From contig OX597828.1 of NCBI GenBank assembly GCA_951406725.2, positions 71,734,001-71,798,000 on the forward strand: a stretch of 64,000 nucleotides of DNA. Direction: 5' to 3'. This document shows positions 14,707-61,727 of the stretch, in pieces. Numbering within the stretch: position 1 is the first letter of the stretch; every line of letters starts with the position of its first letter. The notes under the pieces are model-generated. The model did not search any database and was not told where the DNA came from. It saw only the letters and a program-made list of their open reading frames with translations. This DNA comes from Octopus vulgaris (taxonomy: Eukaryota). The position numbers and the translations under genes were made by a program.

Positions 14707-15578
<872 letters not shown>

Positions 15579-15581
15579 CAT

Positions 15582-16525
15582 ATACAAAAGTCTCGCAGAA
15601 AATACAGAACCCCAGCAATGTTGCACACCTGCAGCAGGAGTTGGAGTCAATCTACAGATGGGCTGAGGATAATAATATGCAGTTTAATGCTGAAAAATTC
15701 CAGGACCTGCACTACCAGCATCCAAAACTGAATATTAAACTTACAGGATACACCGGTCCACAAGGAATTTCAATCCCAGAGTCTAAGTCTGTGAGGGACC
15801 TGGGTATCAACATGAGTGATGATACCTCTTTCCAAGTGCACATTACCAGGATGGCGACAAAGTGCAGACGACTGGTTGGATGGATCCTAAGAACATTCAG
15901 AACCAGAGATAAGGAAACCATGATGGTCCTCAGCCGCCTGGATTACTGCTCACAGCTATGGTCACCTATCAGTGTAAAATTAACAGCGGACCTTGAAGCA
16001 ATCCAGAGAAGATTCACAAAGATCGTCTCTTTGGAACAGCTCAGCTACTGGGAAAGGTTGAAACAGCTAAGACTCTACTCCTTAGAGAGAAGACGGGAGA
16101 GGTATGCAGTAATATATGTCTGGAATATCCTGGAAGGAATTGTGCCAAATTTTGGCATTGTAAGCTACACCAATGCTAGAACGGGAGGACACTGCATAGT
16201 GCCAAAGATCCCAGCAATGCGATCACGCTTCAGGACCAGCTTCTGCAACAGCCTGGGTTTCAAGGACCCACAGCTTTTTAATATTCTCCCAAAGAGTCTG
16301 AGGAACTTGCACAAAGTAGATGTAGCAGTTTTTAAATCAAAGCTGGACATCTTCCTGTCGAGAGTTCCAGATGAACCTACCTCACGGCAAGAGGTGCAAA
16401 TGAGAGTAGCTATGTCAAACTCCATGCTTCACCAAGTGCCACATATTAGAGGAGGTTCTTCATAGTAGCAGTGTAGCACAAAACGGCGGTGCATCAGCAT
16501 GGTCGCAGCTCTGAGCTGAAACAAG

Positions 16526-16589: not shown

Positions 16590-16849
16590 AGTTCCATATT
16601 ATGAAGTTTCTGATTATGTATTCGTCTGTATATTCTCTGAAGAAAGGATGACACTCCGAAACGTCATATTTTTCAGTGTCCCTTACTGGTCAACTAACCA
16701 CTGTATTTCATTTACGACAACTTTGTGTTTAATGAGCAACATAAAACATTATAGACATTAACAAGGAACCGATAGTATAGAAGGCCTGGGACAGGGCGCG
16801 AACTACGCATCTGTCGCATTCCGATCAATGACACTGCAAGGTTATTGAG

Positions 16850-28029: not shown

Positions 28030-29715
28030 GAGAATAAAAACGGAGAATGTACAAGCAAACGTACGGTATCACTTTAGAGTATTTAATTCATAATTTAGAC
28101 ACAGTGTCAAGTTATAGGAAAGACTCTTACAGCTGTTCCTAGAATAGCTAAGCCTATGAATCTTTTATCAAGTAAAGATTTCCACGCCAGGTAAGTATTC
28201 CGTCTTCGGAGAGAGAGAAATAAGGTACATCCTTAAGCCAGAATATTATTAGTTACCAGCTCATTGAGGGATAAAGGAGTGTCCAAAGTAAAAGATGGTA
28301 TTGGTCGATAGATATCATTTATTATGAATCTCCTTAATCCTTCCATCATGGATCTACTGACCGATACCATTTTTTACTTTGGACACTCCTTAATCCCTCA
28401 CTGAACTGTAATTAATAATATTGTTACGAGGGGACCTCCGAAAACTGTACGGAATCCCTCAGACAGGCCCGACTCGATCAGCGAACGTTCTCGCCACGGA
28501 AACTCGTCGGAGAGAGGAGAGGAGAGACACAACCGCAGCAAGGCAACAGAGACACAGAGACACAACCCGAGAGAGACACCAAAAGAGGCAAGGCAAAACG
28601 GCAACACTGGCTTACATTCAACAACTAGTTTATATGACAATCAATGGTTACAACATCAAAGCATTTAAGGCAAACAACAAATCAATGCATCATACGGGTA
28701 TACCACAGACCAAAGCATTTAACAACATACATGTAACAATATATCAGTCCGGAGACACAGCAAGTCATATACAGTATTCCAAAGGTACACGTTACGTCAC
28801 AGTCCAATCAGAACACTATAATCGATACATTATACAATGTTCGTATCACAACAATTCACGTTACAGTTCAAAGTTCATTATCGTCTACATCAGAGTCCTT
28901 CTTTTTCTCTCTTCTTTTCTCTTTCTTTTCTTTTACATCGTAACACGTATCAATACAATTAAATACCTTAATTCCTAATTGAATCGCCAGTGTCCCAATA
29001 TTGCACCTCATCTCTCCGTACCGCTAATTCCTCTGTACATATTTCCCTCTGTGCCGCCAAGCTCTCGCATCCCAACTTGCTCCTAAAATTCCAACTCCTT
29101 GCCGACTTCCAGAATCCGACTGTCCTTCTTCGACGACCGACTCCAACTGCCAAGACCTCACTTCCTCTCTAACTGCCCTGCTCCCTTACTGCCTATCTCT
29201 ATCGCCTCAATCTGTCCCTAGCCTTATACTCTATCTCTCTCACTACTTTTCTTCTCTCTGCCCCTCATCCTCTCTTACTGCCAACACCCTCTCCATCTGC
29301 TCTTAGATTCCTTACTCTATCTTTTTCTTACTACTGCTAGATTCTTCCTCACATATTCAAGGGGTGTCTAGAACGACCCCTAATTCACCCGAAAGGGGTC
29401 GCAGAGTTTACCCAGAACCGATCAATCCACCTGAATCTGACAGGACAATGGGTTTATCCCAAAAGTAGGTCAAGAAGTACCGTGAACTGAACTATTCACA
29501 ACAATATATTAGATTACAAATATTCCTTCTCTCTCTCTCCGATGACGGTATACTTTGCTGACGTAGAAATCTTTGCTCAATAATACAAGATTCATGGGCT
29601 TAATTATTCTAGAAACAGCTGTAAGGAACTTAACAATAACTCCTCTGAATTATGTCTAGATTATAAATTAAAAGCTCTAAAGCGATACCATATGTCTTGC
29701 TTTTTTATTCTCTGT
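28030..29715. mobile_element. Long imperfect palindromic Penelope-like module with two inverted hammerhead motifs, interrupted by a solo LTR
   Basis: 28030-28320 is the diverged reverse complement of 28345-28421 plus 29504-29715. Motifs CCGA(A/T)GA...GAAA-cagctg-TA at 28124-28213 (-) and 29535-29627 (+). Confidence 0.7.
28422..29503. mobile_element. Solo LTR (probably Gypsy-type), 1082 bp
   Basis: Begins TGTTACGA and ends TCACAACA, with a 4-bp TSD ATAT at 28418-28421 and 29504-29507. It splits one arm of a palindrome. Confidence 0.75.
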
Positions 29716-35054: not shown

Positions 35055-35066
35055 GTATATATATAC

Positions 35067-35240
35067 AGGCGCAGGAGTGGCTGTGTGGTAAGCAGCTTGC
35101 TTACCAACCACATGGTTCCGGGTTCGGTCCCACTGCGTGACACCTTGGGCAAGTGTCTTCTACTATAGTCTCGGACCGACCAAAGCCTTGTGAGTGGATT
35201 TGATAGACAGAAACTGAAAGAAGCCCATGGTATATATGTA
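35067..35240 (+). mobile_element. SINE family B 5' half
   Basis: Intact head ggcgcaggagtggctgtgtggtaag through gaaactgaaagaagccc. Confidence 0.85.
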
Positions 35241-35394: not shown

Positions 35395-35450
<56 letters not shown>

Positions 35451-35452
<2 letters not shown>

Positions 35453-36004
35453 CAATAATAATTCTCTAAAAGGGATATAGACAGTAACTGCTCGATAACA
35501 TAAGGGACTAAAGCCATCTGAATATGGCTCGTGACGGTGTCGAGCCTTTCTGGTGACGTCGATGTTCGCCTGGGGCTAAATGCAACAGTAACACCCCCAC
35601 CACCCTGCCCTGTCCCTAGCCATATTCAGATGGCTTTAGTCCCTATGTTATCGAGCAGTTACTGTCTATATCCCTTTTAGAGAATTATTATTGCTTTCGA
35701 ACAGATTTTCGAAATCAGCAAATGTATTTTGCTTGAAAATCTATATAAGAAATCCTGCATAGTGAGAATTCGTCGAGGAAGCGGAGGCCTACCACACGCC
35801 GATGATAGGCAATACACCTTGAAACCATGGTCCGTGTGTGGTTTCCGCTTCATCGGGGAATTACCTCCTTGCAGGTTTAGGGCACCGTGACGGTGTCGAG
35901 CCTTTCTGGTGACGTCGATGTTCGCCTGGGGCTAAATGCAACAGTAACACCCCCACCACCCTGCCCTGTCCCTAGCCATATTCAGATGGCTTTAGTCCCT
36001 TATG

Positions 36005-36008
<4 letters not shown>
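35451..36008 (+). mobile_element. Penelope-like pseudo-LTR module: inverted tail plus partial tandem repeat plus hammerhead, inserted in (TA)n
   Basis: 35451-35529 is inverted at 35618-35695, 35530-35651 is directly repeated at 35886-36008, and a hammerhead lies at 35793-35838. Confidence 0.85.
35793..35838 (+). ncRNA. Minimal type I hammerhead ribozyme motif (U4C core variant)
   Basis: cacacg-CCGATGA-t-agg-caataca-cct-t-GAAA-ccatgg-TC^cgtgtg. Stem I extends further (gaagcgga/tccgcttc) and helix III is the palindrome ACCATGGT. Confidence 0.8.
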
Positions 36009-36031
<23 letters not shown>

Positions 36032-36041
<10 letters not shown>

Positions 36042-36330
36042 TAAATTAGAGATAAAACCACTATTAGGCAAATCATACAATGAAAAACATGAGCCAATAC
36101 ATAAAATTAATTAATTTATATTATTTTAAATATATATCATAAGTATTAAAATTTAATAAAAGATAATGAGTAAAACATAATAGTGTTTTACTCATTATCT
36201 TTTATTAAATTTTTAATACTTTTGATATATATTTAAAATAATATAAATTAATTAATTTTATGTATTGGCTCATGTTTTTCATTGTATGATTTGCCTAATA
36301 GTGGTTTTATCTCTAATTTAATATAATATA
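36032..36330. repeat. Near-perfect AT-rich hairpin (~146-bp arms, 6-nt loop)
   Basis: 36032-36177 versus 36184-36330. Starts at a (TA)n tract. Confidence 0.9.
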
Positions 36331-36467
36331 ATATTTTACTATAAAATTGGATTCAATCCTAAATCTGATTTTTCCCTGTAAGTTTGGATTTATTCCCTAA
36401 TATTTTATTATTAATTTATATATATAAATTATATATATATATATATACATATGTATGTACATGTTTA

Positions 36468-36736
36468 TGTGTCTATGTTTGCCCCCCCCCCGCCATCGCT
36501 TGACAACCGATGTTGGTGTGTTTATGTCCCCGTAACTTAGCGGTTCGGCAAAAGAGACCGATAGAATAAGTTCTATGCTTACAAAGAATAAGTCCTGGGG
36601 TTGATTTGTTCGACTAAAAGTCGGTGCTCCAGCATGGCCACAGTCAAATGACTGAAACAAATAAAAGAATGTGTGTGGGTGTGTATAAATATATATATAT
36701 GTGTATGTGTGTGTATGTATGGATATATACATATAC

Positions 36737-36771
<35 letters not shown>

Positions 36772-37168
36772 TCTTTCTCTTTTCTCTTTTACTTGTTTCA
36801 GTCATTTGACTGCGGCCATGCTGGAGCACCGCCTTTAATCGAGCAACTCGACCTCGGGACTTATTATTTGTAAGCCCAGTACTTATTCTATCGGTTTCTT
36901 TTTTGCCGAACCGCTAAGTGACGGGGACGTAAACACACCAGCATCGGTTGTCAAGCGATGCTAGGGGGACAAACACAGACACACAAACACACACACATAT
37001 ATATATATATACGACAGGCTTCTTTCAGTTTCCGTCTACCAAATCCACTCACAAGGCATTGGTCGGCCCGGAGCTATAGCAGAAGACACTTGCCCAAGAT
37101 GCCACGCAGTGGACTGGACCCGGAACCATGTGGTTGGTTAGCAAGCTACTTACCACACGGCCACTCCT
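36468..37168. mobile_element. Tail-to-tail SINE family B pair (36468-36668 plus, 36785-37168 minus)
   Basis: Family B 3' halves in inverted orientation about 115 bp apart. Confidence 0.9.
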
Positions 37169-39355: not shown

Positions 39356-40900
39356 CTTTTTTTTTCTTCTTTCAAATTTTCTTCCATTTCTTGCCGAGTG
39401 TCTTCCCGACTCCTAGGGCAAAGAAACTCATAGTGTATATTGGTAGGCCATTAAACCAAACTCAGTAGTTCGTTCATTTTTTAAAATTGTTTTTTTTAAA
39501 GTTAAATTAAAATACATGAGCAGCAACAGTTCTCACATCGACAATGCTCTTCTCAATACGTGTGATGTATCAGTTAAGACAATCTTTTGCACTTCTTGCA
39601 GGGATGGTAAGCCAGGGATCATTCTCATATAATTTTCGGTTCCCTTCTTGATCATTCCTAGTGCTCCTACGATCACTGGTATTGTAACCGCCTTGAGATG
39701 CCACATTTTCTCAATTTCAATGAGTAGGTCTTTATATTTTCTGAGCTTGTCAAACTCTTTCGCTGAGATATTATGATCACAGGGGATGCTCATGTCGATC
39801 AATAAGCAAACTTTATTGTTTTGGTCTTTCACAACAATATCTGGTTTATTGGCCTTGATGGTTCGGTCTGTATGTACTGGAAAGTCCCACAGAATGGTTA
39901 CATTTTCTCCTTCAGTTACAGCCTCAGGGTGGTGATTATACCACTTGTCGGCAGTTTTGATATTGTAATGCCGACTTATTAGCCAGTGGAGATATTGGCC
40001 AACTCTGTCATGTCTTAATTTATACTCCACTGGTGCTAAGACTTTACATCCAGAGATTAGGTGGTCCACTGTTTCAATCATGTCGTTGCAGAATCGGCAT
40101 TTTGGGTCTGCTCCATTTTTCATCACATTAGCCTGGTAGTTCCGGGTTGATAGGCTTTGGTCTTGAGCAGCCAGGATGAAACCTTCGCTCTCTGCTTTTA
40201 GCCCTGAGCTCCGCAGCCACTGATGGGTTTGCTTCTGGTCAACATCAGCTTGTTTGCTGCGGGTCACATATTTGCCGTGCAGAGGTTTCTCCTCCCACCT
40301 ATCAGCCAATTGCTCGTGCGCTTTTTTCATTGCCATCATTTTCACCTTCTTTGCAACAATAGTTGCCGTACTTCCCTCGGGTTGTTCAGTTTGGGTATCC
40401 TGCACGAGATCAATAGCAAATTTTTTGCTTTCCTTGATGATAGAATGAAGCTTCTTTCGTCTCTCGTGATTTTCCACGAGCTTTAGCATCCAGTCATTCG
40501 ATATTTCGAGATATTTGGCCAGTCCAATTGTGGTTGTTTTGTAAGCTAGTTCAAATTGGATCAGGCCTCGACCTCCTTGGGCTCTGGGAAGGTAAAGGCG
40601 ATCTACGTCTGCCTTTGGGTGGTGCATCCTATTACAACTCAGCAGCTTGCGTATTTTTCTATCTATATTCTTTACTTCACTCATATTCCAGTTCAACACA
40701 TTGTAGCTATAAGTAACAACTGGAACTGCTAGGGAATTTATAGCTAACACCTTGTTACGTGCATTTAGTTCAGATTTCAGGACTGCACGAACTCTCCTAT
40801 AACATTCCTTCCTGATTTTCTCTTTCATGCTTGCATGCTGAATACCAGAGCATTCATTTATCCCTAAATATCTGTATGTTTGTTCTTGGTCAAGCTCTCT
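39356..40900 (-). mobile_element. Young 5'-truncated R4/Dong-like RLE retrotransposon in a compound (TAA)n array
   Basis: Uninterrupted coding frame and about 175-bp 3' UTR, with TAA arrays on both sides. Confidence 0.92.
39533..40900 (-). CDS. Partial ORF: RT end/thumb, CCHC zinc knuckle and PD-(D/E)xK restriction-like endonuclease (no true start codon)
   Basis: YRYLGI; HPKADVDRLYLPRAQGGRGL; LHGKY; AAQDQSL.TRNY; CRFC..ETVDHLISGC; RHDRV; NKPDIVVKD..LLIDMSIP..KLRKYKDL; IPVIVGALG. The upstream poly-Ile in the ORF track is microsatellite. Confidence 0.9.
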   Translation of the reverse strand, partial: RELDQEQTYRYLGINECSGIQHASMKEKIRKECYRRVRAVLKSELNARNKVLAINSLAVPVVTYSYNVLNWNMSEVKNIDRKIRKLLSCNRMHHPKADVDRLYLPRAQGGRGLIQFELAYKTTTIGLAKYLEISNDWMLKLVENHERRKKLHSIIKESKKFAIDLVQDTQTEQPEGSTATIVAKKVKMMAMKKAHEQLADRWEEKPLHGKYVTRSKQADVDQKQTHQWLRSSGLKAESEGFILAAQDQSLSTRNYQANVMKNGADPKCRFCNDMIETVDHLISGCKVLAPVEYKLRHDRVGQYLHWLISRHYNIKTADKWYNHHPEAVTEGENVTILWDFPVHTDRTIKANKPDIVVKDQNNKVCLLIDMSIPCDHNISAKEFDKLRKYKDLLIEIEKMWHLKAVTIPVIVGALGMIKKGTENYMRMIPGLPSLQEVQKIVLTDTSHVLRRALSM

Positions 40901-41658
<758 letters not shown>

Positions 41659-41875
41659 AAGCGGCGAGGTGGTAGAGTCGTTAGTACGTCAGGCAAAATG
41701 CACAGTGGCTTTTGTTCCTTCTTTACGTTCTTAAGTTCAAATTCCATCGGGGTCGGCTTTACCTTTCATTCTTTCGGGGTCGATAAAATAATACCAGTCG
41801 ATCACTGGGCTTCATGCAATCGACTTAGCCTCCTCCCCCCAAATTGCTGACCATGTGCCAATATTTGAAAATAAT
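41659..41875 (+). mobile_element. SINE family A
   Basis: Family A head, core and tail. Confidence 0.85.
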
Positions 41876-61528: not shown

Positions 61529-61727
61529 AATTTATGAGAGAAGAGGGAACAAACGGGCTTCAATTACAAATTACAGCATTTGTCTTTCTGCACTGACAAC
61601 AGCTTTATGTTACTGAGTTTTCATTCTCAAACCATTACATAAATTTATTTTATTAATAATTACATAACTAAATATGATTCAACAACAGCTGTGTGCCGGC
61701 GCTTCATCGGGTAGATTGCTTTTAAAG

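Follow-up and report, generated by a model that had tools for sequence, protein, structure and literature searches.

The window, a 64,000-nt stretch of the Octopus vulgaris genome, contains at 35451..36008 a short insertion with an inverted tail, a partial tandem repeat, and a hammerhead ribozyme motif. What kind of element left it there, and which RNA was copied? A preliminary description of this DNA proposed a retrozyme, made by reverse transcription of a small circular or multimeric RNA, as opposed to the tail end (pLTR) of an ordinary Penelope-like element.

A young family of hammerhead-bearing repeats

The insertion has the following parts. Family positions are those of an actual monomer, taken from locus L004, with numbering that starts at the predicted cut site.

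35402..35450, (TA)n target microsatellite, left flank
35451..35529, minus strand, inverted arm of 0.22 unit (family positions 144-222), with the long (222) start site at the outer end
35451..35494, minus strand, 44-nt tail (family positions 179-222), at the left end only
35530..36008, plus strand, direct arm of 1.33 units (family positions 56-359 followed by 1-178), with the short (178) start site at the outer end
35652..35695, plus strand, internal copy of the tail, a predicted stem-loop with its two feet at the two start sites
35754..35875, plus strand, extended stem that carries the hammerhead (fold prediction)
35793..35838, plus strand, type I hammerhead (motif and predicted stems)
36009..36034, (TA)n target microsatellite, right flank

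The inverted tail is as first described: the 79 nt at 35451-35529 align in reverse complement to 35618-35695 with a single gap of 1 nt, and match the family reference at 79/79 positions. The reported direct repeat with a period of 356 (35530 versus 35886) is real in this copy (115 nt are exact, and 123 nt are 99.2% identical with one 1-nt gap), but it is not the period of the family, which is 359-360 nt. Nor is this copy the best-preserved module that it was taken for, as it is missing three single bases (479/482 columns match the family reference).

A search of the genome (2.8 Gb in 227 contigs) with the monomer gave 301 matches (best 40 of 606 candidates), in arrays with a period of 359-360. 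So this is a multi-copy family and not a single-copy sequence, and the identity of 99-100% among the 150 matches listed bears out the earlier view that the insertion is young. The units are 359-360 nt long and lie head to tail, with up to 15 per arm, on many contigs. Exact searches for the hammerhead motif gave 802 matches for the subfamily in the window and 415 with another base at position 7, or about 1,200 ribozyme copies genome-wide. One contig had 18 + 18 family loci in the two motif lists; scaled up from that contig, the family would have about 450 loci genome-wide. A sister family has 1,011 motif matches. The longest open reading frame in a 4-mer of the monomer is just 58 amino acids. 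We conclude that 35451-36008 is one insertion of a young, non-coding, hammerhead-bearing repeat family.

The copy in the window has a single hammerhead, and so does not have the two consecutive hammerheads by which Li et al. define active copies. We predict that, unable to release a monomer on its own, it is a dead end. Many other loci of the family carry at least two consecutive hammerheads.

The sequence from the window also occurs, whole or in part, in 20 sequencing runs from 10 studies, with no RNA run listed among them. Contigs assembled from each of four of these runs loop back by 359 nt, a pattern expected from a circle and from tandem DNA or RNA alike. One run contig starts, in the sense strand, with what we take to be a template-switch oligo, which is a weak hint of transcription only.

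The window has other repeats as well. A second AT-rich inverted insertion lies in the same (TA)n, at 36032-36410; its 130-nt arms are 96% complementary, the right arm runs on for about 80 nt, and it looks like another tailed Penelope-type insertion. SINE-like repeats are at 35066-35230 and at 36486-36968, where an inverted pair of them flanks a microsatellite. Judged by eye from their translations, 15107-16465 (plus strand) and 39533-41680 (minus strand) are 5'-truncated ends of LINE-like reverse transcriptases fused to microsatellites.

Insertion ends

We analyzed 93 loci: the 40 best DNA matches (including the window), and 16 and 37 loci from the motif searches. Because 40 of the 93 are best-scoring matches, the sample favors long arrays. 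Most of these loci (69/93) have a minus arm followed by a plus arm. Another 23 are in a single orientation, with the short end at 14, the long end at 8, and another end at 1, and the remaining locus is complex.

The preliminary description anticipated circularly permuted endpoints. Instead, the outer 3' ends are fixed at two sites, about 178 and 222, which are 44 nt apart, and only the inner truncation points are spread. Among the 69 inverted loci, 63 have one end at 164-182 and one at 214-225, and none have two ends alike (p = 1e-19); the other six have one damaged or non-canonical end. All 63 insertions with two canonical ends consist of an inverted truncated copy with a tail at one end. The copy in the window obeys this rule, as its left arm runs from 222 to 144 and its right arm from 56 to 178. 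The sister family has the same two ends. A hairpin formed by the tail is the minimum-free-energy fold in the young family and in one of three sister sequences.

(TA)n with at least three repeats adjoins 148 of the 155 canonical 3' ends in the 93 loci. Where the target is not pure microsatellite, duplications of 8-13 nt are visible (at L045, L046, L091, L230, and L242; these are approximate, with a 6-nt shift allowed). The 161 inner ends are scattered over the monomer, and a pile-up at the cut site was rejected (4/161, p = 0.19), which counts against a cleaved linear monomer as the template.

These two fixed ends match the signature of two-site reverse transcription and tail formation by Penelope-like elements. 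Such elements form inverted truncated copies, often with a 30-40-bp tail at one end, and prefer (TA)n (Craig 2021, in the available text of PMC8557442). According to the accessible text of Frangieh 2024 (PMC11167929), a purified Penelope-like protein acts on both strands of AT-rich DNA, which it cuts and extends, with initiation at two internal sites, one at each boundary of the tail. Insofar as they are covered by the parts of PMC8557442, PMC3846280, and PMC11167929 available to us, the EN+ Penelope-like elements share with the octopus family the inverted head-to-head structure, a one-sided tail, targets that are AT-rich or (TA)n, duplications of 8-13 nt, and two internal start sites downstream of a hammerhead with a palindromic stem III. 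The octopus family differs from them in that it lacks an ORF, has a 44-nt tail, and repeats its monomer as multimers in both arms. Also, the tail at one end is described there as occurring "often" or "optionally," whereas it is present in 63/63 cases here. It is very likely that Penelope-type twin priming made the two-armed insertions.

The hammerhead and its U4C core

The hammerhead motif is where it was first placed, with the core (CCGATGA in the DNA) at 35799-35805, GAAA at 35821-35824, and GUC at 35830-35832. Its parts, all on the plus strand, are:

35793-98/35833-38, stem I
35799-35805, core CCGAUGA (U4C)
35807-09/35817-19, stem II, after a U.U pair
35821-24, GAAA box
35824-31, palindromic stem III
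after 35832, predicted cut, following GUC (35830-35832)

The motif with stems I-III is present in 382 fetched units. The monomer has a more stable fold than 100 shuffled sequences (z = -5.2). We also examined covariation across 23 homologs (the window, one copy from the other subfamily, two sister copies, and 19 older relatives from a set of 20 loci, of which L089, an unrelated-looking match, was left out). In this alignment, 91% of cells are paired, and 47 cells have two-sided changes; compensatory changes affect 5/6 pairs of stem I and 2/3 pairs of stem II. None of 500 shuffles scored as high, and slid controls gave 18-42%, but 20 of the 23 homologs were chosen by stem III and the core and are related, so the shuffle counts are not probabilities. 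Rfam gave no match to a hammerhead family for 35700-35900, and for the whole window there was no hammerhead among the 150 of 230 matches listed (microsatellite noise). The assignment as a ribozyme thus rests on the motif plus covariation, and we consider it a putative hammerhead.

Stem III is short, and in the monomer the active hammerhead fold (-4.4 kcal/mol) is predicted to lose to an alternative fold (-19.1 kcal/mol). The dimer is predicted to fold at -22.5 kcal/mol, versus -8.4 kcal/mol for two monomers. Palindromic stem III and a dimeric arrangement have been reviewed for the hammerheads of Penelope-like elements (available text of PMC6765202 and PMC4209133), and the HHR_Amex2 hammerhead from axolotl, which also has U.U as the basal pair of helix II, is reported in the accessible part of PMC7229834 to cleave better as a dimer.

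Position 4 of the core is C in 381 of the 382 units, and the exact core context with A, G, or T at this position has no matches in the genome. Two apparent U4 revertants (L105 and L111) were rejected, as the two CTGA matches examined are chimeras at inner junctions. U4 is the state in the sister and older families, which makes U4C a derived change whose fixation preceded at least two bursts. This agrees with the suggestion that U4C is a feature of the lineage and not decay.

The CCGA motifs at 28203-28209, 29539-29545, and about 61705, which had been cited as further cases of the core variant, are not from the 359-nt family. The first (minus strand) and second are within another repeat, whose copies are 78% alike over 200 nt. 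By eye, the layout of this repeat (28115-28218 on the minus strand and 29530-29640 on the plus strand) is hammerhead-like, with a CCGA(A/T)GA core, a long stem II, and a palindromic stem III ending in GUA, and it belongs to a clade with thousands of motif matches. The third (61704-61710, minus strand) is a decayed CCGA motif without a GAAA box. A minimal hammerhead-like motif with a canonical core also lies at 16637-16664 (plus strand), just past a LINE-like fragment.

Position 4 varies in a different hammerhead clade of the genome, with 2,538 matches for C, 2,295 for T, and 118 for A or G. U4C is also known from a viroid hammerhead, where it lowers activity in vitro but is sufficient in vivo (Ambros and Flores 1998, cited in PMC3088659). 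Judging from the available text of that source, it is a rare variant in the viroid, whereas in the octopus it is fixed in a genomic family and is common in other hammerhead-like repeats.

The older and sister repeats (L070-L088, L151-L180) are homologous to the family, with periods of about 345-360 and U4 cores. A conserved block downstream of the cut site, at about positions 87-118, is common to this clade and is a candidate protein-binding site.

Template and machinery

The unit contains no ORF for a reverse transcriptase with GIY-YIG endonuclease, and none is attached to it. Enzymes of a suitable class do exist in the genome: GIY-YIG elements are numerous, and some copies combine a 781-aa open frame with an end in (TA)n. 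At 42 GIY-YIG loci (from the 150 matches listed among 6,136 candidates), no sequence is common with the monomer or its older relatives, nearby independent insertions aside. A co-location search with profiles and tblastn (7 proteins, 248 sequences) found no end of a Penelope-like ORF within 987 nt upstream of a same-orientation match to the clade, and a motif from a run contig, tried in the same search for a partner, had no matches. L188 was rejected as a partner: its matching sequence is an older relative about 1.3 kb downstream, beyond L188's own (TA)n end.

Some Neptune-like elements carry hammerheads of their own. L181, L187, and L189 are a young family with a 781-aa ORF and, by eye, a minimal hammerhead about 1 kb past it; its core is U3-A8 covariant, and it is preceded by repeated CCAAT/CRE-like boxes. 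The hammerhead of another Neptune-like element (L188:5805 and L191) resembles that of the retrozyme in two respects, a C at position 4 and a basal U.U pair in stem II, and there is no other sequence homology between them. L188, which encodes both a reverse transcriptase and a GIY-YIG domain, has the core CCGAAGA.

This kind of element is already known. The metazoan non-LTR retrozymes of coral, mussel, and axolotl, as far as the accessible text of PMC7229834 describes them, are likewise non-coding tandem monomers (in the range of 150-450 bp) with a type I hammerhead, GC content below 50%, target duplications of over 4 bp, and co-occurring Penelope-like elements. For those retrozymes, circles and cleavage were demonstrated, whereas the octopus family is known here from genomic sequence. 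On the other hand, U4C is fixed in the octopus lineage, and we found no description in that text of fixed two-site ends or head-to-head two-armed insertions. Non-autonomous Penelope-like derivatives with multicopy head-to-tail insertions have also been described by Li, Clavereau, and Pollet (bioRxiv 10.64898/2026.07.22.740005) and, in the part of PMC8557442 available to us, among non-autonomous Chlamys elements such as MRC1. In the bioRxiv study, the link to Penelope is co-occurrence and pLTR homology; in the octopus family, the link is the anatomy of the insertion ends, and no homology to an autonomous pLTR was found at the 42 GIY-YIG loci. The choice posed at the outset, retrozyme or pLTR, is therefore partly a false one: the family has the tandem monomer of the one and the Penelope-like tail and fixed ends of the other, with no attached ORF. 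We would classify it as a putative non-LTR retrozyme, that is, as a non-autonomous Penelope-like element.

Which RNA was copied? The arms are 0.1-15 units long, are truncated at spread positions, and are joined head to head. Within one insertion, arm lengths are uncorrelated (rho 0.03, n = 66), and arms from the long and short ends are equally long (medians of 578 and 626 nt, n = 65). Arm lengths are poorly fit by either an exponential (p = 0.023) or a log-normal distribution (p = 0.025; n = 89). Of 98 minority variants, just four have a counterpart in the other arm, and these four are at L046. Together with the uncorrelated lengths, this indicates that the arms are independent syntheses.

At the 35 loci with at least four units in total, we classified the variants at sites covered by at least four units. 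While 94 variants are in all units of the locus and 4 are in all but one, 149 are in a single unit and 16 are partial. Seven loci carry a variant that is fixed locally and absent from the other sampled loci, and at five of these it is in both arms. For position 303, the one position covered by our genome-wide check, A303C has 13 matches, all in the two arms of L060, where it is fixed in 13/13 covering units; A303G is fixed in L058 but is not private, as it is found at four loci. Of 396 units, 387 are exact across the cut site, and none have added bases. The all-or-one pattern and the locus-fixed variants are best explained by repeated copying of one monomer, i.e., of a circle, and we think it likely that a monomeric circle was the main template.

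A homogeneous source array that is absent from the assembly could mimic a circle. Also, the two arms of L046 change haplotype identically at one and the same unit, which requires a multimeric template, and the 16 partial variants (spread over L032, L036, L043, L050, L056, L069, L230, L241, and L046) require template switching, multimers, or later duplication. These cases show that multimers or template switches occur as well. In L056, L069, L043, L050, and L032, variants in only some units have a period of 2 or 5, and a G8A change in the core is present in two adjacent units of L056. The unit variants and the insertion ends thus support the original proposal of reverse transcription from a circular or multimeric RNA.

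Our preferred reading, which we consider probable, is a non-LTR retrozyme whose inverted copies, with one long and one short end, were made by an enzyme likely to be a Penelope-like reverse transcriptase with GIY-YIG endonuclease. This enzyme would nick both strands of (TA)n and prime from each, probably on a monomeric RNA circle. Tandem arrays would be transcribed, cut by hammerheads working as dimers, and ligated into circles of 359-360 nt. A lone circle would resist re-cleavage because its stem III is only 2 bp and its core has U4C. Two reverse transcriptase active sites, one per strand, would account for the one site per arm that we observe in inverted insertions, and each would run around the template until it dropped off, as the spread truncation points and uncorrelated arm lengths suggest. 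More speculatively, a Penelope-like dimer may hold one circular RNA of 359 nt by the two feet of the tail hairpin and perform rolling-circle copying from both nicked strands, with one subunit per site, and U4C may be a recurrent tuning-down of the ribozyme that was fixed independently in several families. We offer this extension tentatively and doubt that all of it will hold.

The same twin priming might have used an uncleaved, linear, multimeric read-through transcript, with the U4C hammerhead being too slow to matter. Unprocessed RNA was the dominant substrate, and cleavage was unnecessary for insertion in vitro, in the available text of PMC11167929. A slow hammerhead would itself favor long copies, and the lack of a pile-up of ends at the cut site, the weak fold of the monomer, the mirrored switch in L046, and the 16 partial variants all fit as well. 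But 94 of the 98 minority variants are not mirrored between arms, A303C has no source elsewhere in the assembly, and a homogeneous 12-unit source would presumably need a monomer-based origin itself, so we consider a linear template unlikely. Alternatively, one arm could have been copied from the other by self-priming or fold-back, which was proposed from junction palindromes in head-to-head Penelope structures (accessible text of PMC3846280). The mirrored arms of L046 and the overlaps of 1-10 nt at many head-to-head junctions would be explained, but the arms start at unrelated monomer positions, either arm can be longer, minority variants are mostly unmirrored, and the strict pairing of long and short outer ends in (TA)n is not predicted. 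Fold-back is very improbable.

Two other explanations concern how the arrays and tails arose. Short insertions might have been amplified later in place, like satellite DNA, by unequal crossing-over or gene conversion. This was suggested for retrozyme arrays (bioRxiv 10.64898/2026.07.22.740005), and variants that recur every 2 or 5 units within an arm (L043, L050, L069) are in keeping with it. Yet arrays are present in each of the two arms, the insertions are young, near-identical, and intact at their ends, and variants specific to one locus are fixed in the two inverted arms alike, which makes in-place amplification quite implausible as the main process. Finally, a tail, an inversion, and a partial tandem are all usual in Penelope-like elements (PMC8557442, in the part available to us), as expected if the window held an ordinary 5'-truncated tail-end copy (pLTR) of an autonomous element. 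That is largely refuted and, in our view, barely credible: the 359-nt unit has no ORF and forms head-to-tail series of up to 15, the 248 sequences searched with seven proteins had no Penelope-like ORF end within 987 nt upstream in the same orientation, and at the 23 single-orientation loci the sequence on the 5' side is mostly simple repeat or else differs from locus to locus.

Among the papers that we consulted or saw listed, we found no account of the 359-nt family, of the strict rule of one site per arm, or of unit-level evidence for rolling-circle copying. We also found no fixed U4C in an animal retrozyme, although existing papers may cover U4C variants or cephalopod retrozymes. The machinery that moves animal retrozymes is stated to be an open question in the available text of PMC7229834 and PMC7761336, as is the origin of tandem or inverted Penelope-like insertions with a one-sided tail in that of PMC8557442 and PMC11167929.

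The octopus family bears on both questions. Its hundreds of near-identical recent insertions have ends that show Penelope-like two-site priming, strictly with one site per arm, and its unit-level variants record the template. At 359 nt and with both start sites mapped, the RNA is a compact substrate for the in vitro assay that already exists. A core variant known from a viroid is fixed here in a successful animal element, and any motif search restricted to CUGA would overlook more than half of the motifs in one clade (2,538 with C versus 2,295 with U). If the dimer-on-circle reading is true, it would explain the inverted-plus-tail anatomy of all such elements, and U4C would let the circles survive as templates.
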